Source: Chthoniobacterales bacterium | GTDB lineage: Bacteria > Verrucomicrobiota > Verrucomicrobiia > Chthoniobacterales > Chthoniobacteraceae | Length of the DNA stretch: 64,000 nt | Assembly (NCBI GenBank): GCA_038207335.1 | Contig: JBBQZX010000026.1 | Span: 11,466 to 75,465, forward strand | Direction: 5' to 3' | Shown: positions 4,873 to 49,623 of the stretch, one piece after another | Position numbering within the stretch: the first letter of the stretch is position 1 | How the letters are laid out: the number at the start of each line of letters is the position of its first letter | Program-made: the position numbers and the translations under genes | Notes under the pieces: generated by a model | Told to the model about the DNA's origin: nothing | The model's database searches: none | The model's input: the letters and a program-made list of their open reading frames with translations, nothing else

Positions 4873-5604
4873 TTAGCGAGGCGCAGGACTGTTGCTCCGC
4901 CCGACCGATCCATTGCCTGTCGCACGGCCGTCCGCCTTCGTCGTAATATCGTTGTCAGTCGCCGCTTTCGACCCCGGTTGCGTGGTGATGTCTTTGTCCG
5001 TCCGGGCCTTCGAACCAGGTTGCGTCGTGATGTCGTGATCGGTGAGCGCTTTCGATCCCGGCTGTGTGGTGATGTCGTTATCAGTGCGCGCTTTCATCCC
5101 CGGCTGAGTGGTGATGTCGTTGTCGATTCGTGCCTTCGATCCCGGCTGCGTCGTAATATCACCGTCGGTCAATGCGGGATTCGCGAGCGGGAGCGTGGCG
5201 CGCGGTGTGGGGATGAGCGGCGCTGTTGGAAGCGTTCCCGGAGCTGTGACCACTGCGGGGGCGGTCGCATTCGGATCGGCGATCGAGACTTTGCTCACGA
5301 CCAGTCGCCCGTCGCGAGTCGCGTAGTGAACCGTGACTGGCATATCTGCACGGATCGTGGCGAATGTCGCGGGAGTGCCGTCGTTTGTCTGCACGGTCGC
5401 TTCACTCAACCCATAAAATGTGATCGGCCCGCGCGTTTGCTCCGAAAAGATCGTCATCGCACCGTTCTTGGAATCCACCGTGATCACTTTTCCAGTTGAG
5501 ACAGGCGCACTTGGTGATGATGCGACAGGAACGCTGACTTGCGCCTGAAGAGTTGAGCCGATGGTCAGAGCGAAAATGGCGCAGAGAGTGGAAATGGTTT
5601 TCAT
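4873..5604 (-). CDS. Secreted protein with six C-terminal 14-aa tandem repeats (DITTQPGSKARTDN)
   Basis: Track ORF 4873..5634 trimmed to MKTISTLCAIFALTIGSTLQAQ (signal peptide). Coding-like composition; the repeats are read directly from the translation. Confidence 0.7.
   Translation of the reverse strand: MKTISTLCAIFALTIGSTLQAQVSVPVASSPSAPVSTGKVITVDSKNGAMTIFSEQTRGPITFYGLSEATVQTNDGTPATFATIRADMPVTVHYATRDGRLVVSKVSIADPNATAPAVVTAPGTLPTAPLIPTPRATLPLANPALTDGDITTQPGSKARIDNDITTQPGMKARTDNDITTQPGSKALTDHDITTQPGSKARTDKDITTQPGSKAATDNDITTKADGRATGNGSVGRSNSPAPR
4912..5160. repeat. 42-nt tandem repeat, about 6 copies, in-frame coding repeat
   Basis: Repeated gtgatgtcgttgtc...cgatcccggctg units are visible on the + strand. 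They encode DITTQPG(S/M)KA(R/L/A)(I/T)D(N/H/K). Confidence 0.85.
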
Positions 5605-5942
5605 AGAAAGCAGCGGTTTGGATTTAGAGGGCACAGGTACGGATCGAAATCACGCACACCCTGAATCGTCGCGCTCGCCGCCAGCGGACGCCCGCGGAGC
5701 CTCATCCGGACGGGCGACGATAAACCCAAGTAGCGCCAATGCCATGGGAGGCGCCATGCCGGAATGAGAAAAAAATTGCCCCGCGCGGTCGGCGAAGCCG
5801 GTTCCGCGCGGAGCGCTCCACCCCTGGAGAATTTCCCTCAGTCGAGGGCTGAAATTTGAAATTCACTGTTCACCGCAGTCAGCAAATCCGCAAGTGGGGC
5901 CGTCCCCTAGCGATGGATGAGGGAACGCACCGCGCCCCGACT

Positions 5943-6899
5943 TTATCGCACCGCGCTGCGTGCGCCGGCACAGAGATAGAGCACCGCCATCCGCACCGCG
6001 AGGCCGTTGGTTACTTGATCCAGGATCACCGATCGCGCGCTGTCCGCGAGGTCGCTGTCGATCTCGATCCCGCGATTGATCGGCCCCGGGTGCATGATGA
6101 GCGCGCCCGGTTTCAGCCGCTCCGCGCGCTTTTTCGTGAGACCGAAAAGCGACGTGTATTCGCCGAGCCCTGGAAAATATTCCTTCCGCTGCCGCTCGTG
6201 CTGGATGCGCAAAAGATTCACCACATCGACCTCCGGCAGCACCGAATCCAAATCGTGCGACACCTCCACGCCCATCTGCTCGAACGTCCGCGGCACCAGC
6301 GTGCTCGGGCCGACCAGCGTCACGCGCGCGCCGAGTTTCAGCAGCGCGTGGATATTCGACCGCGCTACGCGGCTGAACAAAATATCGCCGATGATCGCGA
6401 CGTGAATCCCCGCAATGCGTCCCAGCTTTTCGCGGATCGTAAATGTGTCGAGAAGCGCCTGCGTTGGGTGCGCATGCGCCCCATCGCCCGCATTGATGAT
6501 GCTCGCCTCCAGCCGCTCCGCGAGGAACTGCGCCGCGCCCGCCGAGCTGTGCCGAATCACGATAATGTCCGCATGATTCGCCTCCAGAATCTTCGCCGTG
6601 TCCTTCAGCGTCTCGCCCTTCACGAGGCTCGATGTGCTCGCGGAAATATTGATCACATCCGCGCTCAGCCGGATTGCCGCCAGCTCAAATGAAGTCCGCG
6701 TCCGCGTGCTCGCCTCCACGAAGAAATTCACGAGCGTCTTACCCCGCAATGCCGGCACCTTCTTGATCTCGCGCGTCCCGACCTGCTTGAAGGCCGCCGC
6801 CGAATCGAGAATGTGCGTGATCTCCGCGGCGCTCAGCGGCTCGATCCCGACGAGGTCCTTGCGCGTCCACTCGGTGTCGGTTGTGAGTTCGGGAGGCAT
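5943..6899 (-). CDS. pyrB: Aspartate carbamoyltransferase catalytic subunit
   Basis: STRTRTSFE (carbamoyl-phosphate binding), HPTQALLD and HPGP motifs. Trimmed to ATG 6899 (MPPELTT...), so it no longer overlaps pyrR. Confidence 0.93.
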
Positions 6900-6924
6900 C
6901 TTTAATTTCGTGGAAAATCGCGCC

Positions 6925-7509
6925 TCACGCGTGCTCGAGCCAGACTGAATCAGGCACGCCATCCAGTGCCTCCAGCCGCACGAAAACACGCTCGCCCATC
7001 TGCGTCGGCAGATTCTTCCCCACGAAATCCGCGTGGATCGGCAGCTCCCGATGACCCCGGTCGATCAGCGCCGCGAGCTGAATCTGCGCGGGCCGTCCAA
7101 AGCTCGAAAGCGAATCCATCGCCGCCCGGCAGGTGCGGCCGGAAAAGAGCACGTCATCCACGAGCACGAGCCTCTTGTCGGTGAGTTCGGCAGGCAATTC
7201 CGTCGGCTGCATCGCCCACATCCGGCGCCGCGTGTGCAAGTCATCGCGATGCATCGACACATCGATGATCCCCGTCTCGATGCGCACCTTTTCAAACTGC
7301 CCGATGAACCCCGCCAGCCGCCGCGCCAGTTCCACACCGCGCGATGGAATGCCGACCAGCACGACTTTTTCCAGCTCCGGATTCCGCTCGATGATCTCGT
7401 GCGCGATCCGCTTCAGCGCGCGCTCGATCGCCATCCCATCGAGGATCAGCACCGCTCCCGGCGACGGGGCACCGGGCAGCGTGGTAGAGAGTTTTGTGTT
7501 GTCTGGCAT
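6925..7509 (-). CDS. pyrR: Bifunctional pyrimidine operon regulator / uracil phosphoribosyltransferase
   Basis: PRPP-binding motif [13 protein letters not shown]. Typical PyrR length after trimming to ATG 7509, and it sits immediately upstream of pyrB. Confidence 0.9.
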
Positions 7510-11137: not shown

Positions 11138-11815
11138 ATGGACCAAAAGCTCCTTTTTCTCATCAATCGCGAGTGGATAAATCCGACGCTCGACCGGGTG
11201 ATGACGATCGCTTCGAGCTTCGATGTGTGGCTGCTGCCGCTGCTTGTGCTCTTGGTGTGCGTGGGATGGCTTGGGGGTTTCACGGCACGGGCGTTTTTGA
11301 TCACGGCGGCGCTGGTGGTGGCTGTGAATGACGGGTTGGTGTCGAACACTTTGAAGAAGCTGGTGGATCGGCCGCGGCCATTCCAATCGCACAATGATGT
11401 GCGGCAACTGGATCTGGCGAAGGCGCGGCCGCGCATCCTGGCGCTGGGTGCGCCGCTGAAGATCAAGCTTTCGCGTGCGAATCTGGACGACGTGGATGGC
11501 CGGAGTTTTCCCTCCTCGCACACGATCAACAACTTCTCGATTGCCACGATTTGCGCGGCATTTTACCGGCGTTGGGGCTGGCTGGCGTTTTTCCCCGCGG
11601 CGGTCGTCGGCTACTCGCGCATCTATACTGGCGCGCATTGGCCGAGCGATGTGCTGACCACGATCCCCCTCGCGATCGGCTCGACGCTGCTGCTGCTGGC
11701 GCTCTCAGAATGGCTCTGGCAAAGGATCGGCGGGCGATGCCTGCCGCGCGTGGCCGCAGAGCACCCGTCACTTTTCCACCGCGAGGCATCGCTGAATCGG
11801 AGCGCTGCAGTATGA
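11138..11815 (+). CDS. PAP2-superfamily phosphatase (membrane; undecaprenyl-PP / lipid phosphatase-like)
   Basis: Acid-phosphatase motifs KKLVDRPRP, PSSH and SRIYTGAHWPSD, with multiple TM segments. Trimmed to ATG 11138. Confidence 0.8.
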   Translation: MDQKLLFLINREWINPTLDRVMTIASSFDVWLLPLLVLLVCVGWLGGFTARAFLITAALVVAVNDGLVSNTLKKLVDRPRPFQSHNDVRQLDLAKARPRILALGAPLKIKLSRANLDDVDGRSFPSSHTINNFSIATICAAFYRRWGWLAFFPAAVVGYSRIYTGAHWPSDVLTTIPLAIGSTLLLLALSEWLWQRIGGRCLPRVAAEHPSLFHREASLNRSAAV

Positions 11816-39165: not shown

Positions 39166-39226
39166 GTGACTTGGGATTAAAAAACGGGCGGGTTCGTTAG
39201 CGTCGGATCGGTCGGAGCGCCAGCGA

Positions 39227-44247: not shown

Positions 44248-45267
44248 CTAATCGCGCGGAGTGACTCCGAGGCCGGGGAATGCCGATGGAGACAGGATTC
44301 CGCGGTTGAAGGCCCAGCCGCGAAATGGGTCGTCGCGAAGCAGCCACGCACCGTCGAGATCAGCGAAATCCGTTTTCTGCGCCACTGCCGCGCCAGCCGC
44401 GATGAGGATGCTGCTTTCCAACATGCAGCCGACCATCGTCCGCAGTCCGAATTCGCGTCCGCGCCGCGCCATCCGCACCGCGGGCGTGATTCCGCCACAT
44501 TTCACGAGCTTGATATTGAAGCCGCCAAACCGCTCCGCGACGCGCTCGACATCGGCATCCAACACGCAGCTTTCATCGGCGAAGATGGGCGGTCCGCCTG
44601 CGACTCTCGGGACGCGCGAATCGTTCTCGGGAAGGAACGGCTGCTCTATGAACGCGACATTCAGCGCTCGCAATTCCGCCGCGAGCGCAGTCAAGTCGTG
44701 CGCGCCCCACGCGCAGTTTGCGTCGACTGCGATCACCGCGCCGCTCGCCGCGCGCACGCTTCGGATCGGTGTGAGATCGGCGGCTGCGTTTGATTTGATC
44801 TTGATCATCGGAAAGCCCCGCAGCTCGGCGATCTTCTGCTGAAGCTCTTCCGCGGTCGATAGGCCGATCGTGCAGAACGTCGGGATCGCGCGCGGATGCG
44901 CGCCCCACGCGAGTTCGCTGACGCTGATCTTCTCCCGTTGCGCGAGCAAATCCCACAGCGCCAGGTCGATCGCGCACTGCGCCGCGCGGGACGGCGCGAC
45001 GATCTCCCAAACCTCCTCCCACACGCGCGAAATATCCTCGACGGATACGATTCGAACCTCGCTCACGAACTTCTCCGCAGCCGAGAGCGCGGCCAGCACG
45101 CTTTCCGCAGTCTCGTTGTAAAATGAGTTCGGCGACGCTTCGCCGCGTGCAATCACGCCGTCGGATTCCAATTCGACGAAGACATTCCGTACCGCCGAAC
45201 GCCGTGCCCGCGCGATCCGAAATTCCTGACGCGGATGAAGCTCTCGAATGGACGCGCTGAATTTCAA
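44248..45267 (-). CDS. Dipeptide epimerase (L-Ala-D/L-Glu epimerase-like, enolase superfamily)
   Basis: MR/MLE-type pattern: KIKS..., VDANCAW, FIEQP, ADES, and NIKLVKCGG (KxK and Asp/Glu metal ligands). Confidence 0.85.
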   Translation of the reverse strand: MKFSASIRELHPRQEFRIARARRSAVRNVFVELESDGVIARGEASPNSFYNETAESVLAALSAAEKFVSEVRIVSVEDISRVWEEVWEIVAPSRAAQCAIDLALWDLLAQREKISVSELAWGAHPRAIPTFCTIGLSTAEELQQKIAELRGFPMIKIKSNAAADLTPIRSVRAASGAVIAVDANCAWGAHDLTALAAELRALNVAFIEQPFLPENDSRVPRVAGGPPIFADESCVLDADVERVAERFGGFNIKLVKCGGITPAVRMARRGREFGLRTMVGCMLESSILIAAGAAVAQKTDFADLDGAWLLRDDPFRGWAFNRGILSPSAFPGLGVTPRD

Positions 45268-45297
45268 GTGGGACGAGTTCCGGGAGAGGAGCGCGAG

Positions 45298-45369
45298 AGG
45301 CGGGGGGGGGAATCGAACCCCCGAATGCGGCTTTTGCAGAGCCGAGCCTTACCACTTGGCTACCCCGCC
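45298..45369 (-). tRNA. tRNA-Cys (anticodon GCA)
   Basis: The manual cloverleaf on the minus strand reads: GGCGGGG-TA-GCCA-AGTGGTA-AGGC-T-CGGCT-CTGCAAA-AGCCG-CATTC-GGGGG-TTCGATT-CCCCC-CCCCGCC-T. It has an A13:A22 and U73 discriminator typical of tRNA-Cys. CCA is not encoded. Confidence 0.92.
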
Positions 45370-45469
45370 ATTTTTGCGAGCGGATGACGTACCCGACGTT
45401 CCCGCGCTCGTCAACGCGATTGCTGGCGCGATCCGCTTTCCCGGCCCATCTTCCCCGCTCCCCGGCCTC

Positions 45470-47188
45470 GTGAACGACTCCCACATTTCCACCCCGCGCC
45501 TCTTCCGCATACTCCTCTGGGTGCAGTGGCGCTCGTTGAAAGCACGGCTCGCCGGCATTCAGCGCGAGTCGCCGCTCATGCTCATCGTGCTAGCGTGTTT
45601 CGTCGCCGGGTATGTCGGCGTCGGCTTCTGGCTGCTGCGCTCGGGGCTCGGGCTGCTCTACCATTTCCCCATCGTCGGCAGCCTGCTTTCGCAGCGGATT
45701 CTCTTCCTCGTTTTCGCCTTCTTTTTCGTGATGCTCGTCTTCTCGAACATCGTCATCGGCTACTCGACGCTCTTCAAAAATCGCGAGACCCAGTGGCTCC
45801 TTTCGCTGCCCGTACCGCACCGAAATATCTACCGCTGGAAATTCCTCGAAGCCCTCTCCATCTCGAGCTGGGCGCTCATTTTCCTCAGCGCTCCGATGAT
45901 GCTCGCGTATGGCCGCGTCCACGATGTCCCGCTCATTTTCTACGCGCAGGCTGCGCTCGTCTTCCTGCCATTCGTCACGATCCCCGCGCTGATCGGCTCG
46001 TGGATCATTCTCTTTTTCGTCCACGTCCTCGCGCGGCGCGGTGTGAAAAAAATCGCCCTGGGCACCGGCGCGCTCGTCCTGCTGGTACTCATTTTTTCTG
46101 TGAAGCCCGCGAGCGACCTCGACGCCACGAGCGCGCAGGACGTCCTCTCGCTCGACCAGCTCCTCCGCCACACGCGCCTCAGCACGAACGCCTTCCTCCC
46201 GAGCGCTTGGATGGCCAAATCCGTCATCGCGTGGGGCGAGGGCCTCGGCACGCAGGGCGCGTTTTATTTCCTCCTGCTGCTGAGCAATGCCCTCATGGGA
46301 TTGCTCATCGGCTTCGAGATCATGGGCCGCTTCTTTTTCAAAAGCTGGACCGCCACGCTGAGCTCGCGCGCCGAGCGATTTCAGCGGCGCGCCGAGGCCA
46401 TGCGCCTGCGCGGCGAACGGCGTTCGCTGCTTGAAATGGTCGCCGGCCTCCTCCGCATCTTCTCGCAGCCCACTGCCGCGCTCGTGCTGAAAGACGCCCG
46501 CCTTTTCTGGCGCGACCCCGCGCAGTGGATCCAGTTCATGATCTTCTTCGGCCTGCTCTGCATCTACGTGCTGAACCTCCGCAACGTCGCCTTCGATTTC
46601 CAAACCCCGTTTTGGGAAACCACCATCAGCTACCTGAATCTCGGCGCCTCCGCCCTCACGCTTTCCACGCTCACCACGCGCTTCGTCTATCCGCAAATCA
46701 GCCTCGAGGGCCGGCGCCTCTGGATCATCGGCCTCGCCCCGATGGGCTTGAAAAAGGTGCTCCTGCAGAAATTCTGGATGAGCTCCGGGGCCGCCATGTG
46801 CGTCACCGTGAGCCTCATGATCGCGTCGAGCGTCATGCTCCATCTGCCCGCGCTGAAGGTCGTCTTTTTCTCCGGCTCGATCGCCCTGATGAGCGTCACC
46901 CTGAGCGGCCTCGCGGTCGGCCTCGGCGCGCTCTTTCCGAACTTCAAGGAAGACAACCCCACGAAAATCGTCAGCGGATTCGGCGGCACGCTCTGCCTCG
47001 TCGTCAGCTTCATCTACATCGCGCTCTTCATCGCCCTCGCCGCCCTCCCCGACCTCCGGCTCGTCATCAAAATCCCATTTCCGATGCCCGATTGCATCGC
47101 GATCTGCCTCGCGATCTTCCTCAGCGCCTGCGTGCTCATCCTCCCCCTCGGCGCCGCCATCCACCGCGTGCGCACGCTGGAGATTTAG
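45470..47188 (+). CDS. Polytopic membrane protein (ABC-2/'putative ABC exporter'-like permease; function unknown)
   Basis: Track ORF 45248..47188 would overlap tRNA-Cys, so it is trimmed to GTG 45470 (VNDSHISTPRLFRILLWVQWRSLKARL). There are at least 10 hydrophobic helices and no adjacent ABC ATPase. The start is uncertain. Confidence 0.6.
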   Translation: MNDSHISTPRLFRILLWVQWRSLKARLAGIQRESPLMLIVLACFVAGYVGVGFWLLRSGLGLLYHFPIVGSLLSQRILFLVFAFFFVMLVFSNIVIGYSTLFKNRETQWLLSLPVPHRNIYRWKFLEALSISSWALIFLSAPMMLAYGRVHDVPLIFYAQAALVFLPFVTIPALIGSWIILFFVHVLARRGVKKIALGTGALVLLVLIFSVKPASDLDATSAQDVLSLDQLLRHTRLSTNAFLPSAWMAKSVIAWGEGLGTQGAFYFLLLLSNALMGLLIGFEIMGRFFFKSWTATLSSRAERFQRRAEAMRLRGERRSLLEMVAGLLRIFSQPTAALVLKDARLFWRDPAQWIQFMIFFGLLCIYVLNLRNVAFDFQTPFWETTISYLNLGASALTLSTLTTRFVYPQISLEGRRLWIIGLAPMGLKKVLLQKFWMSSGAAMCVTVSLMIASSVMLHLPALKVVFFSGSIALMSVTLSGLAVGLGALFPNFKEDNPTKIVSGFGGTLCLVVSFIYIALFIALAALPDLRLVIKIPFPMPDCIAICLAIFLSACVLILPLGAAIHRVRTLEI

Positions 47189-47455: not shown

Positions 47456-47463
47456 GCGGTTTT
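47456..47463. repeat. Left copy of the 8-bp target-site duplication GCGGTTTT
   Basis: It is identical to 49616-49623 and abuts the outer end of the left terminal inverted repeat. Confidence 0.8.
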
Positions 47464-47494
47464 CGCGATTATCCCGTTCACAAATGTAGGGTGA
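47464..47494. repeat. Left terminal inverted repeat (IRL)
   Basis: cgcgattatcccgttcacaaatgtagggtga compared with the reverse complement of 49585-49615, cgcgattatccccttgacaaatgttgagaga. That is 26/31 identical, with the first 12 nt perfect. Confidence 0.8.
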
Positions 47495-47531
47495 TTTTGT
47501 GGGTTGAAGCGTAGGCGTCACTCGCCTGCGT

Positions 47532-47801
47532 TTACTTTGTCGGCTTCGCCTTCTGGCCGACTGGCTTGCTGACCTTCTTCGGCTTCGTCGGCTTAATCGT
47601 GAGCGCGCGGCGCATGATCTCGTCGAATCCAAGCGGTTGCGGTGTTTTTGATTTCAAGAATTCAACATACCCGAAAGCTACGGCGGCTTCCACTTCAAAC
47701 TGCGCTGCCCTCTCATTCCATGTGATACTGTTTTTTTTCTGCTTGCGTGCTACTTCGGGGCAAGCTATTCGTGCTTCCGTGATCACTGCTGAAATTATCA
47801 A
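47532..47801 (-). CDS. Hypothetical small protein with Lys-rich C-terminal tail (IS passenger)
   Basis: Complete 89-aa ORF with plausible composition (…FGYVEFLKSKTPQPLGFDEIMRRALTIKPTKPKKVSKPVGQKAKPTK). No family recognised. It partly overlaps an alternative start of the divergent ORF. Confidence 0.35.
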   Translation of the reverse strand: MIISAVITEARIACPEVARKQKKNSITWNERAAQFEVEAAVAFGYVEFLKSKTPQPLGFDEIMRRALTIKPTKPKKVSKPVGQKAKPTK

Positions 47802-47838
47802 ATCCGAAATTACCGAACTCGATCTGAAACTCTCCGCG

Positions 47839-48222
47839 ATGGAGCCACTTCGGAAGCGCCGGGACGCGTTGAAGAACCTTCTGGAAACCTACGGCAACGA
47901 CGAAACTCAACCTCGCTTGCTCGACGCTCCGAGCCTAGCGCCATCTGAACGCTACAAGTCGCTCGGAACGACACAAGCAATGATGGAGTTCCTGCGAGAC
48001 TCGCCGGGCGCATATTTCAGCCCGCGTGACATCGGGAAGGCGATGCTGGCTGGGGGACACGAATCCAAGTCGCCGAACTTTTTCAACATCGTTTACACGA
48101 TCTGCAAGCGAAAGGGTGAAGCTGGCGATTTCGAGGTTGCGGAACGCAAAGGGAAAAAAGTTTTCCGACTTCCATCTCAACCAGCCGCAACGACCTCGGC
48201 GCAACCACAGGAAGGAAGGTGA
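47839..48222 (+). CDS. Hypothetical protein, possible winged-helix DNA-binding fold (IS passenger)
   Basis: ORF frame of track 47566..48222. ATG 47839 (MEPLRKRRDALKNLLETYG...) or GTG 47779 are candidate starts. The segment TQAMMEFLRDSPGAYFSPRDIGKAMLAGGHESKSPNFFNIVYTICKRKGE looks like a wHTH. The fold call is inference only. Confidence 0.45.
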   Translation: MEPLRKRRDALKNLLETYGNDETQPRLLDAPSLAPSERYKSLGTTQAMMEFLRDSPGAYFSPRDIGKAMLAGGHESKSPNFFNIVYTICKRKGEAGDFEVAERKGKKVFRLPSQPAATTSAQPQEGR

Positions 48223-48340
48223 AACAACACGTATGAGCAACCAAGCATACGCAGAAATCTGCGAGCACGGTGACGGCGACACGCCGCCGCCCCAACACCC
48301 GGCGCGATTGAGAGATCGACGCTGCGCGCCGGGAAAGAAA

Positions 48341-48390
48341 CAGCCGATTGACCTAAAGCAACTTTGAACGGCGCAATGGTCAATCGGCTG
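48341..48390. other. Perfect 13-bp inverted repeat (hairpin) 47 nt upstream of the tRNA-like gene
   Basis: cagccgattgacc (48341-48353) pairs with ggtcaatcggctg (48378-48390). The loop is 24 nt. Confidence 0.6.
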
Positions 48391-48436
48391 GAAACTCGGA
48401 TCGTCGGGCGAGGGGAAACCCCGCCTTGAACCCTAA

Positions 48437-48534
48437 GCAGGCGTGGCGCAAATGGAAGACGCGGAGGACTTGGAATCCTCTGGGTGCCTCTGATCAGGAA
48501 TACACCCATGCGAGTTCGACTCTCGTCGCCTGCA
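48437..48534 (+). tRNA. Atypical type-II tRNA-like gene: tRNA-Leu-like body, anticodon UGG (Pro), 29-nt variable arm
   Basis: The manual cloverleaf reads: GCAGGCG-TG-GCG-CAAATGGAAGA-CGC-G-GAGGA-CTTGGAA-TCCTC-[TGGGTG...CACCCA-T, 29 nt]-GCGAG-TTCGACT-CTCGT-CGCCTGC-A. It has 7/7 Watson-Crick acceptor pairs, U33, a purine at 37, G18G19, T54-T55-C56 and A58. CCA is not encoded, as in tRNA-Cys. Confidence 0.6.
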
Positions 48535-48586
48535 ACCTCAACGTCGAATTTTAGCACTAAAAGTCAACGATGAATTGCAGCACGCT

Positions 48587-49567
48587 TCATTTCTGCTCCG
48601 CCAAAGGCTTGTATGTGAGGCGTTTGCCTTCGACTTTTTTCAGTCCGGCAACCGTGCGCTCTCCGTCTGAAACCTTGCGGTGATTCCAGCGGAAATCGAA
48701 TTCTGCAACGTATTTCGGCAGGTGCTTTTTGGAAATGTGGTGGAAATTTCCGGCGATTCCACGCCGCAAAAGGCTGAATGAGCTTTCCGCGTAGTTTGTC
48801 GTGACAACCTCGCCGTCCGCCTCGATGCGGTGATACTCTCGCTTGCCGCGCAGCTTTGCGTGACGCACTGACTTGTGGACGAACTCTTTCGGTAAATTGA
48901 TGTATGGCCGACTCTCATCGGTGTTGACCGTCGATCCCGCTTCGACGTGATCTTGCACGGCTTTGTGCAATCCCTTGGCCGTTACTCGGTCAAGAACGAC
49001 GGTTCGCCGGGTTCCAGTGGAACGCTCCACAAGCGCCACAACGCATGATTTTTCGGCGTGCGCTCCCGGACCGCGAAACTTCGCTTTTGTGCCGATATAG
49101 CACTCATCGACCTCGACGATTCCCGAGAGTTTGCCCTCGAAAATTGGATCGGTCATTGCGTGCCGAATCCGATGCGACATGAACCACGCTGTTTTGTAGC
49201 TTCCGAGACCAAGATGCCGTTGAAGCTGCTTTGCGCTCATGCCTTTTTTTGCGCCGCAAATCAGATACCAAGCAACAAGCCAGATGTTGAGCGGCACATG
49301 CGAATCCTCGAAAATCGTGCCGACCGTCACGCGGAATTGTTTCGTGCATTGAGCGCATTGCCGAATCCCGACGCGGATTTTTTTTGCCGGATTTGATTTG
49401 AGATTCCAAAAGAGAAGCTGATCACTGTTTCCGCAATGAGGGCACACGACGCCATTCTCCCACCGAATCGACTCCAAATATTTGATCGCCGTCTCTTCTG
49501 TGGAGAAGCGCAACATGATTTGCGGGAGCGTCAAATCCTCTGGCGTTGGAAGCAATTTCGTCTTCAT
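48587..49567 (-). CDS. IS1595-family (ISXO2-like) transposase
   Basis: N-terminal zinc ribbon CPHCGN...CAQC, then ...WLVAWYLICGAKKGMSAKQLQRHLGLGSYKTAWFMSHRIRHAM...VEVDECYIG (DDE domain). Confidence 0.9.
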   Translation of the reverse strand: MKTKLLPTPEDLTLPQIMLRFSTEETAIKYLESIRWENGVVCPHCGNSDQLLFWNLKSNPAKKIRVGIRQCAQCTKQFRVTVGTIFEDSHVPLNIWLVAWYLICGAKKGMSAKQLQRHLGLGSYKTAWFMSHRIRHAMTDPIFEGKLSGIVEVDECYIGTKAKFRGPGAHAEKSCVVALVERSTGTRRTVVLDRVTAKGLHKAVQDHVEAGSTVNTDESRPYINLPKEFVHKSVRHAKLRGKREYHRIEADGEVVTTNYAESSFSLLRRGIAGNFHHISKKHLPKYVAEFDFRWNHRKVSDGERTVAGLKKVEGKRLTYKPLAEQK

Positions 49568-49584
49568 GGAATCAAAATTCCATT

Positions 49585-49615
49585 TCTCTCAACATTTGTC
49601 AAGGGGATAATCGCG
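49585..49615. repeat. Right terminal inverted repeat (IRR)
   Basis: Reverse complement of IRL, 26/31 identical (see IRL). Confidence 0.8.
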
Positions 49616-49623
49616 GCGGTTTT
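49616..49623. repeat. Right copy of the 8-bp target-site duplication GCGGTTTT
   Basis: Identical to 47456-47463. Confidence 0.8.

Follow-up and report, generated by a model that had tools for sequence, protein, structure and literature searches.

A transporter insertion sequence of the IS1595 family in a Chthoniobacterales bacterium carries a leucine-type tRNA with a proline anticodon

The 64,000-nucleotide stretch of DNA analysed here (the window; positions 11,466 to 75,465 of contig JBBQZX010000026.1, assembly GCA_038207335.1, from a Chthoniobacterales bacterium) contains an insertion sequence (IS) of the IS1595 family whose passengers include a tRNA gene with a leucine-type body and the proline anticodon UGG. 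Some 30 related IS1595 elements, spread over four phyla, carry a Leu-type tRNA, and in none of them is a Leu body combined with a Leu anticodon. The reading that we favour, with somewhat better than even confidence, is that the element is a transporter IS mobilizing a mis-decoding tRNA charged by leucyl-tRNA synthetase (LeuRS), and that this tRNA probably also acts on translation of the element's own transposase. The element is a transporter IS with an unusual and recurrent cargo, and the group of tRNA-carrying IS1595 elements to which it belongs is apparently both widespread and undescribed.

The element spans window positions 47464-49615 (2,152 bp) and comprises one intact transposase and ~1.1 kb of cargo. 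It is bounded by terminal inverted repeats of 31 nt, at 47464-47494 on the cargo side (+ strand; CGCGATTATCCCGTTCACAAATGTAGGGTGA) and at 49585-49615 on the transposase side (- strand; containing the hexamer TTGACA), which are complementary at 26 of 31 positions (84%), perfect over the outer 12 nt (CGCGATTATCCC) at both element ends, and the sole long inverted pair that repeat finding reported for the region. Both outer ends are abutted by the 8-bp sequence GCGGTTTT, read directly at 47456-47463 and, identically, at 49616-49623; duplications of 8 bp are the typical length for the IS1595 family. GC content is 0.49-0.57 within the element against 0.62-0.67 in its flanks, and the drop coincides with the terminal repeats. 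In all of this, and in the layout (transposase in the right ~1.03 kb; small open reading frames (ORFs), which number three, a 13-bp hairpin and the tRNA gene in the left ~1.1 kb), our analysis agrees with a first-pass annotation made from the sequence alone. The repeats and the duplication indicate a single-unit insertion, as that annotation also held; for its further suggestion that the insertion was probably recent, the perfect duplication and the intact transposase ORF are the sole grounds. The insertion site is intergenic, in a high-GC genome.

The transposase (326 aa; 48587-49567, - strand) matches PF12760 (Zn_ribbon_IS1595, E=2.3e-12) in its N-terminal part, PF12762 (DDE_Tnp_IS1595, E=1.9e-32), and the NCBIfam model NF033547 'IS1595 family transposase' at 185.6 bits, for which the cut-off is 75. 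A zinc-ribbon DDE transposase, terminal inverted repeats and an 8-bp duplication are the marks of the IS1595 family, and the original assignment of the element to it stands. Its nearest transposase relatives, 50-64% identical, come from Chthoniobacterales and Verrucomicrobiota metagenome-assembled genomes (MAGs), and these relatives and the GC content of 63% point to the lineage of the host. The ends, (C)G(C/G)GATTAT, resemble 'ggnnatTAT', the consensus of ISNwi1, which is a candidate subgroup for the element. A left-end pattern, ...G(G/C)GATTATCCC(G/C)TT(G/C)ACAAATGT, is common to the window element and the elements at loci L002, L085, L165 and L084.

Homologous elements at other sites show that these ends are real and that the cargo travels with the transposase. 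In 14 independent relatives (L002, L011, L028, L036, L039, L044, L054, L056, L059, L063, L064, L065, L066 and L165), inverted repeats of the same type and a perfect 8-bp duplication enclose the tRNA; these elements measure 1,966-3,716 bp and lie in unrelated, mostly AT-rich targets, and the tRNA of L056 is of class I. The L002 element, with 63% transposase identity, ends in CGGGATTATCCC...GGGATAATCCCG with the duplication AAACTATT, and its modules follow the same order as in the window, with ~1.2 kb of extra sequence; L165 has the duplication TTTATGAT and the same terminal sequence type. Both enclose the same cargo module, tRNA included, at sites unrelated to ours, and in relatives the cargo was never seen at a locus that lacks the transposase, so that two outcomes which the first-pass annotation had named as fatal to its interpretation, divergent ends and independent cargo, did not materialize. 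With its passenger genes inside the ends, the window element is an intact 'transporter' IS of the IS1595 family.

The cargo tRNA gene is 98 nt long, of class II, and lies at 48437-48534 on the + strand, with no encoded CCA. It was described at first only as tRNA-like; it is a real tRNA by Rfam RF00005 (46.8 bits, E=3e-8, gathering score 29; relative to the model, 26 nt are inserted in the variable region) and by our own covariance model R1 (78.8 bits), and its minimum-free-energy fold is the cloverleaf. ARAGORN reported only the host tRNA-Cys in the window and missed the cargo tRNA, probably because of its 29-nt variable arm. The acceptor stem GCAGGCG/CGCCUGC is followed by U8, a 3-bp D-stem and the D-loop CAAAUGGAAGA; the anticodon stem GAGGA/UCCUC closes the loop CUUGGAA, which provides U33, the anticodon UGG and A37; and the T-arm GCGAG-UUCGACU-CUCGU gives a 7/5 acceptor/T configuration, with A73 as discriminator. 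The variable arm (48482-48510) forms a long hairpin, GGGUG-CCUC-UGAUC-AGG-AAUA-CACCC, with counterparts in L165 (4325-4352; GGGAG-CCCC-GGUCA-AGG-AUUA-CUCCC) and L002 (- strand, within 6223-6322; GGGCCG-CCUG-UGAUU-AGG-AGAA-CGGCCC). This extra length is kept in all three, through sequence conservation and compensatory changes, while L085, from the same sub-lineage, has an ordinary arm of 16 nt. The arm could be a protein-binding hairpin; translation tolerates long variable arms, aptamer-tagged tRNAs being reported as translationally active (PMC7590224). As regards annotation in general, standard tRNA finders miss the long-arm members of this family or call them 'tRNA-Pro', 'tRNA-Stop' or 'tRNA-Pyl'.

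To gauge recurrence, 80 genome loci and 80 metagenome loci encoding relatives of the transposase were scanned, the genome loci by ARAGORN and Rfam. At many genome loci the transposase is closely followed by a tRNA of abnormal length, which the programs call Pro(UGG), Pro(AGG), 'Stop'(UUA) or 'Pyl'(CUA). Fifteen well-aligned family tRNAs were used to build R1; in their alignment 98.3% of cells are paired and 14 of the 20 pairs show compensatory changes, against 32-49% paired in slid controls. Strong R1 matches (62-88 bits) occur at 16 of the 80 genome loci and 12 of the 80 metagenome loci, all of them 29-1263 nt downstream of the transposase. The anticodon UGG, which reads Pro codons, is found in the window and in 12 further elements; UUA, which reads the ochre stop, in nine; CUA, which reads amber, in two; AGG, also for Pro, in two; and ACG and CCU, both for Arg, in one element each, the latter a partial one. 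The same neighbourhood is recovered when starting from homologs of the cargo protein ORF-A: L165 encodes, besides the transposase, ORF-B, ORF-A, a 97-nt tRNA(UGG) whose long arm is homologous to that of the window, and an NYN gene, and at L083 a transposase is accompanied by ORF-A and by a class-I tRNA whose anticodon loop is likewise CUUGGAA. The first-pass annotation had called a tRNA-like passenger notable, and the result goes beyond that, the tRNA being the only cargo item common to the whole group and its anticodon being non-cognate.

In Escherichia coli, LeuRS requires A73, the A15-U48 Levitt pair, G18G19/A20a, U8:A14 and the D/T-loop tertiary pairs, and depends on the anticodon as little as on the variable arm, that is, not at all; seryl-tRNA synthetase (SerRS) is blocked by C2-G71, and LeuRS by G73 (PMC9976931). 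The whole E. coli Leu set is present in the window tRNA, namely A73, U8:A14, A15-U48, G18G19, the D/T-loop pairs, the class-II arm and C2:G71. Among the 26 cargo tRNAs examined, A73, U8, A14, A15 and U48 are found in every one, and C2:G71 in 25. A search with the L028 tRNA by BLAST gave annotated tRNA-Leu as the best matches in all 5,426 E. coli genomes. The body is that of a complete tRNA-Leu, but the decoding is not: Leu anticodons are NAG or NAA, with A35, and since the window anticodon is UGG, the molecule is not a tRNA-Leu isoacceptor. Every anticodon of the group but CCU is a position-35 variant of a Leu anticodon (UAG to UGG, UAA to UUA, CAA to CUA, AAG to AGG or ACG). The sole Leu anticodon that we saw, UAG, belongs to a weaker match at L010, whose body has the LeuRS-blocking G73.

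Given a synthetase that ignores the anticodon and a complete Leu identity set, the window tRNA is most likely charged with leucine. It would then most likely read CCA, and CCG by wobble, as Leu, and so act as a mobile missense suppressor, and its UUA- and CUA-bearing cousins would by the same token be Leu-inserting ochre and amber suppressors. The E. coli tRNA-Pro set consists of C1:G72, G15-C48, G37 and a short class-I variable loop; G35, G36 and A73 are determinants for prolyl-tRNA synthetase (ProRS), and some bacterial ProRS are dominated by the anticodon (PMC9976931). Of these features the window tRNA has the NGG anticodon and A73, and departs from the rest with G1:C72, A15-U48, A37 and its 29-nt variable arm. 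In the 26 cargo tRNAs G15-C48 does not occur, G72 occurs only in L149, and G37 in two.

A second line of evidence links the anticodon of each tRNA to the codons or the stop of the transposase beside it. In the transposases of 13 UGG elements, CCA accounts for 27% of the codons for Pro, whereas A-ending codons reach 13.4% in the other four-fold families (p=4e-6); the corresponding values are 15% and 12% in 20 tRNA-less relatives from the same phyla, and 9.4% and 8.1% in host genes (a ratio of ~1.2 in both), and the excess in UGG elements over the control is itself significant (p=0.0015). In the window, CCA accounts for nine of the 22 Pro codons of the transposase and ORF-A. Transposase codons 7-9 read CCA ACG CCA, a run that is invariant in all five closest relatives (61-64% identical) while flanking synonymous sites vary; codons 7 and 9 fall within the motif L-P-T-P-E, in which Pro is a conserved residue. 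In the two AGG elements, 7 of 15 Pro codons are CCU and not one is CCA. In the suppressor elements the transposase stop is TAA or TAG in 11 of 11, never TGA, and is TAG in both CUA elements; TGA accounts for 27 of 79 stops in the background, which yields P ~0.01 when phylogeny is ignored. The transposase ORF of suppressor elements ends two residues past the conserved GKRLTY motif, whereas those of tRNA-less relatives run on for 4-14 residues. In 7 of the 11 suppressor elements, translation in frame beyond the stop would yield a basic peptide that is conserved among them, (I/L)xRN(K/Q)xWKAIKA...RRR, and terminates at TGA; the peptide appears in none of more than 80 tRNA-less relatives. The transposase ORFs of suppressor elements are intact, with no internal in-frame stops.

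Two more specific forms of recoding were considered and rejected. A simple readthrough fusion of transposase and ORF-B is ruled out because ORF-B lies in the +1 frame with an 8-nt overlap, and self-recoding at conserved Leu positions of the transposase found no support, since no conserved-Leu column uses a Pro codon in UGG elements.

Together, these observations suggest a tRNA tuned to the transposase mRNA of its own element, and lead to the following scheme. One DDE transposase moves everything between the 31-nt repeats, producing the 8-bp duplication, and LeuRS would charge the cargo tRNA with leucine regardless of its anticodon. The CCA excess, the CCA-ACG-CCA run, and the TAA or TAG stops with their readthrough tail lead us to propose the element's own transposase mRNA as the primary target, in which case the amount or isoform of transposase would depend on the tRNA. 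ORF-A and the palindrome described below may control expression of the tRNA, and low-level mis-decoding across the proteome would be a side effect. A bolder version, which we regard as possible but somewhat doubtful, is that a private, anticodon-switched Leu tRNA serves as a translational gate on the transposase throughout a widespread IS1595 lineage. Because LeuRS ignores the anticodon, the latter could be retuned to whichever codon is placed in the transposase, be it a rare CCA or CCU or a TAA or TAG followed by a basic tail, and no active or alternative transposase would arise unless the tRNA were expressed, its expression being under winged-helix control.

Several of our own results weigh against the proposal of a leucine-charged tRNA acting on its transposase. 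Relatives that lack the tRNA are interleaved with the others in the transposase tree, and the tRNA is therefore dispensable for transposition as such. Expression, processing and aminoacylation of the tRNA are predictions from sequence, and the members with UGG or AGG could be prolylated by way of G35, G36 and A73. Were Leu inserted at CCA, the CCA-rich transposase would itself be mistranslated, and relatives show no abundance of Leu in the columns occupied by CCA (Leu fraction 0.02, n=10). Only one sub-lineage has the N-terminal CCA pair, which could be a DNA or RNA motif and not a matter of codon choice. The single ACG element shows no codon match, and for the ACG and CCU elements, one of each, matching is absent or marginal. 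The stop-codon statistics are inflated because the suppressor elements partly form one clade; the start of ORF-B is encoded, in the +1 frame, by the readthrough stretch as well, and a weak frame test on that stretch favoured frame 0 only slightly (synonymous fraction 30% in frame 0, 24% in +1 and 14% in +2). Lastly, neither a second copy nor an empty site of the window element came to light, the genome and metagenome scans giving no relative above 64% identity and no search aimed at the empty site having been made.

The rival that fares best leaves the genetic code untouched: the tRNA would be charged by ProRS and would provide extra CCA decoding for an AT-richer element in a high-GC host, in the manner of phage-encoded tRNAs and with no mistranslation. 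Several facts fit it. CCA is a rare codon in host genes and a frequent one in the element, its excess is specific to UGG elements, the CCA codons at positions 7 and 9 encode conserved prolines, and the anticodon and A73 would suit a ProRS that relies mainly on the anticodon, as some do (PMC9976931). The body, in its Levitt pair, first base pair, position 37 and class-II arm, is nonetheless that of a Leu and not a Pro tRNA, and capture of a host tRNA-Pro would have been simpler, yet ~30 elements have Leu-type bodies. Moreover, in sister elements the same body bears anticodons for stops (UUA, CUA) or for Arg, for which codon supply offers no explanation. We therefore think proline supply unlikely, if not negligibly so.

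Slightly less probable still is that the tRNA-shaped RNA does not decode at all and is instead a regulatory RNA, a decoy for tRNA nucleases, a signal for processing of the cargo transcript, or the toxic partner of an addiction module. Several relatives do carry toxin-antitoxin-like pairs or an NYN nuclease, and the arm of 29-34 nt conserved in the window, L165 and L002 is beyond the normal tRNA range and defeats ARAGORN. L085, however, makes do with 16 nt within the same sub-lineage, and the hallmarks of a translating tRNA persist from phylum to phylum: an anticodon loop of 7 nt (U33 in 24 of 26), a canonical T-loop, G18G19, the 7/5 stack and A73, with CCA encoded in several family members. 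The match between anticodon and transposase codons would also be hard to explain without decoding.

We give very little credence to the view that the tRNA is a decaying, functionless pseudogene, or a hitch-hiker captured once from a host tRNA-Leu. The interleaving of tRNA-less relatives would accord with it, but the pairing maintained across divergent copies and the invariant identity nucleotides would not, and random decay would hardly have left ~30 copies without one Leu anticodon on a Leu body; the tRNA recurs in four phyla, and transposase identities of 40-64% exclude recent duplicates of one source. Least credible of all is that the inverted and direct repeats are fortuitous and the segment is not one mobile unit, since, although the window holds a single copy and no identical one was found elsewhere, the same termini and 8-bp duplications surround homologous elements at unrelated sites and the GC drop coincides with the repeats.

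The protein-coding cargo forms, with the tRNA, a conserved module, in which ORF-A lies upstream of the tRNA on the same strand, ORF-C ends in a palindrome, and ORF-B completes the set; each of the three ORFs is conserved in relatives. ORF-A (47779-48222, + strand; 147 aa) is predicted to be a winged-helix protein. Its close homologs are few (P0002, 65% identical; P0003, 48%), and the family amounts to 107 representative clusters among 1.84 billion proteins; homologs adjoin a tRNA and an IS1595 transposase again in L083 and L165. The AlphaFold2 model (pLDDT 79.5 overall, >90 in the C-terminal domain) has helices at 4-39, 64-74, 82-91 and 101-114 and a beta-hairpin, suggesting a long, coiled-coil-like N-terminal helix, a disordered linker and a C-terminal winged helix of three helices and the beta-hairpin. 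Foldseek returned only generic winged-helix matches (Fur/Zur, OMT), all at E>=0.008; there was no Pfam, NCBIfam or PADLOC match, and the analogous ORFs of relatives gave sub-threshold matches to HARE-HTH. On the strength of the model, ORF-A is a probable DNA-binding regulator.

ORF-B (47532-47657, - strand) is a basic microprotein of ~41 aa (MKSKTPQPLGFDEIMRRALTIKPTKPKKVSKPVGQKAKPTK) whose start is uncertain, the frame being open to 47801. Its motif ..F(D/E)E(A/I)(L/M)RR(A/L)L..KP..KPKK, which in the window reads FDEIMRRAL..KP.KPKK, is kept in L002, L165 and many relatives and extends over the whole IS lineage, including members without a tRNA; that occurrence rules out ORF-B as a tRNA-specific partner, and it may be a transposition accessory. 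In elements from Proteobacteria it is read in the +1 frame relative to the transposase, and its overlap with the stop of the latter is 8 nt. Pfam, NCBIfam and PADLOC gave no match to ORF-B, nor did the PADLOC anti-phage models match the transposase, ORF-A or ORF-B at E<=0.1.

ORF-C (48233-48367, + strand) is a micro-ORF of 44 aa (MSNQAYAEICEHGDGDTPPPQHPARLRDRRCAPGKKQPIDLKQL) that reaches at its 3' end into the left palindrome arm, and it is kept in L085 (..MSNQAFAEL..PPQNPARGDRRCASGTKQPIDL) and L002 (MSNQAYAKI...GSKQPFRD). That it acts as a leader peptide is speculation, and a proline-sensing leader was rejected, its Pro codons being CCG, CCC and CCT, not CCA, and its distribution limited to one sub-lineage. 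The perfect 13-bp palindrome, CAGCCGATTGACC-N24-GGTCAATCGGCTG (48341-48353/48378-48390, + strand), recovered by repeat finding, lies 46 nt upstream of the tRNA; its arm is identical in L085 and is preserved in L002 through six compensatory pair changes, and it may act as an operator or as an RNA hairpin. Just upstream of the tRNA, a short GC hairpin, GGCGAGGGG-AAA-CCCCGCC (48407-48425, + strand), is shared by the window and L085 and is absent or altered in L002.

Beyond ORF-A-like and ORF-B-like genes, cargo proteins vary by lineage. Toxin-antitoxin-like pairs (an XRE-HTH or CopG-type antitoxin with a small toxin), an NYN putative RNase or DUF5343 occur in tRNA-carrying elements at L011 (~5050-5860), L056 (~5940-6590), L066 (~6000-6940), L165 (4511-5230) and L028/L065 (DUF5343).

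Other tRNA-like genes also adjoin IS1595 transposases. Class-I forms lie directly downstream of related transposases at L083 (1032-1107, +), L037 (4288-4358, -), L056 (5157-5229, +) and L015 (4978-5055, -); that of L083 has the CUUGGAA loop of the window tRNA, but U73 and a different body. In a Planctomycetota MAG, the L010 tRNA (2031-2132, -) is a 102-nt class-II tRNA, 178 nt downstream of an IS1595 transposase, with a ~30-nt variable arm and a body that is not Leu-type and has a Ser-like look, the inverse mismatch. In proteobacterial elements a second, irregular tRNA-like gene stands immediately upstream of the Leu-like suppressor tRNA, always on the - strand (L044, ~5150-5240; L063, 5238-5305; L065, ~5345-5430; L145, ~1310-1395; L114, ~2668-2755). 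Its acceptor stem measures ~9 bp and its T-stem, with a GGGGTTCGAATCCCC T-arm, 4 bp; a proper D-arm is missing, the anticodon loop is of NCC type (ACC, UCC or CCC), and the discriminator is A73. The gene recalls the 'polycistrons of irregular tRNAs' of an earlier report (PMC5389517). An 86-nt tRNA(UAU) of odd structure (L019, 2043-2128, +), from an Acidobacteriota MAG in which an IS1595 transposase follows 2 kb downstream, may be an allo-tRNA(UAU) reported for Acidobacteria.

With respect to transcription, TTGACA in the transposase-side repeat lies ~35 nt upstream of the transposase ATG and is present in the transposase-proximal repeat of most related elements too, making it a candidate promoter -35 element; a promoter scan of the element found no sigma-70-like promoter, and a terminator scan one terminator-like site, below chance expectation. 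The window contains a single copy of the element. Up to one mismatch, 0.76 occurrences of the 12-mer CGCGATTATCCC are expected in it by chance, and near-matches at 39222 and 58448 (one mismatch each) were dismissed as further ends because similarity stops at the 12-mer. Look-ups of the exact transposase, ORF-A and flanking cupin proteins led to nothing but short contigs of this locus, L001 and L082, and PLSDB plasmids gave no match; the empty site expected for it would read CTGCTGGCGCGGTTTTGCAACGGTACGG. The two contigs (Logan, run SRR19962010) cover the element from either side and both break at 48318-48347, at the palindrome, probably an assembly-graph effect of the inverted repeat. Outside the element, the host tRNA-Cys(GCA) gene (45297-45369, -) overlaps the first ~120 nt of a listed 646-aa ORF (45248-47188, +), and the true start of that membrane-protein gene must therefore be further downstream.

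In known passenger-gene IS1595 elements (those of the ISNwi1-type subgroup), as in the window, a zinc-ribbon and DDE_Tnp_IS1595 transposase, ends of the type ...GATTAT... and an 8-bp duplication accompany genes inside the repeats. The passengers described for them are, however, protein-coding, whereas the group identified here shares a tRNA, and our full-text literature search turned up no IS1595 element described as carrying a tRNA. The nearest parallel in tRNA biology is the allo-tRNAs of Acidobacteria, Clostridia and Proteobacteria (Mukai et al. 2017, PMC5389517), which are likewise of class II, rely on a synthetase that ignores the anticodon, and bear many non-cognate anticodons, stop anticodons included; they occur in soil bacteria and have been reported near toxin-antitoxin systems. 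Allo-tRNAs have 8/4 or 9/3 stems, Ser (or Ala) identity and G73 (PMC5389517), in contrast with the 7/5 stems, Leu identity and A73 found here; lacking the 12-bp branch in 8/4 or 9/3 form and G73, the window tRNA follows the same logic without being a member. Unlike allo-tRNAs, window-type tRNAs are placed inside defined IS1595 elements and matched to transposase codons.

The E. coli suppressor supP/Su6, derived from leuX, is a Leu-inserting nonsense suppressor created by a position-35 change and stays leucylated, and the UUA and CUA cargo tRNAs of sister elements follow the same logic. Suppressors of the supP type are essential isoacceptors mutated in the laboratory or spontaneously in the chromosome, whereas those described here are dedicated, conserved mobile genes, and the window copy is a missense form directed at a Pro codon. 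Phages, too, carry tRNAs matched to their own codons or stops, including suppressor tRNAs in stop-codon-recoded phages, and share with the window element the principle of a mobile element that brings its own codon-matched tRNA; here, the carrier is a DDE transposon of 2-3.7 kb with one to few genes, and the identity and anticodon of the tRNA are mismatched. The Streptomyces tRNA-ProX/ProA family comprises natural mistranslating tRNAs that need a dedicated synthetase, ProRSx. In human, anticodon variants of tRNA-Leu and tRNA-Ala are reported as sporadic mistranslating tRNAs (PMC11028032, PMC12084884). The Streptomyces and human cases share the mismatch between anticodon and charging, but differ in the combinations involved and are not transposon cargo.

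A conflict between charging and anticodon is rare among natural tRNAs, and such cases are relevant to how the code freezes or drifts. If the charging predicted here holds, a small DDE transposon able to move such tRNAs within and between genomes, in at least four phyla, would make Pro-to-Leu missense and nonsense suppression horizontally transferable. The matching of anticodons to transposase codons and stops further suggests a new form of transposition control, namely tRNA-dependent recoding. Should the transposase indeed be gated in this way, these elements would constitute the first transposon-encoded recoding system, and a mobile, natural source of suppression in soil bacteria. Compact tRNAs that are served by an anticodon-blind synthetase, tolerate long variable arms and come with their own regulators might, like allo-tRNAs, also offer a chassis for engineering of the genetic code.

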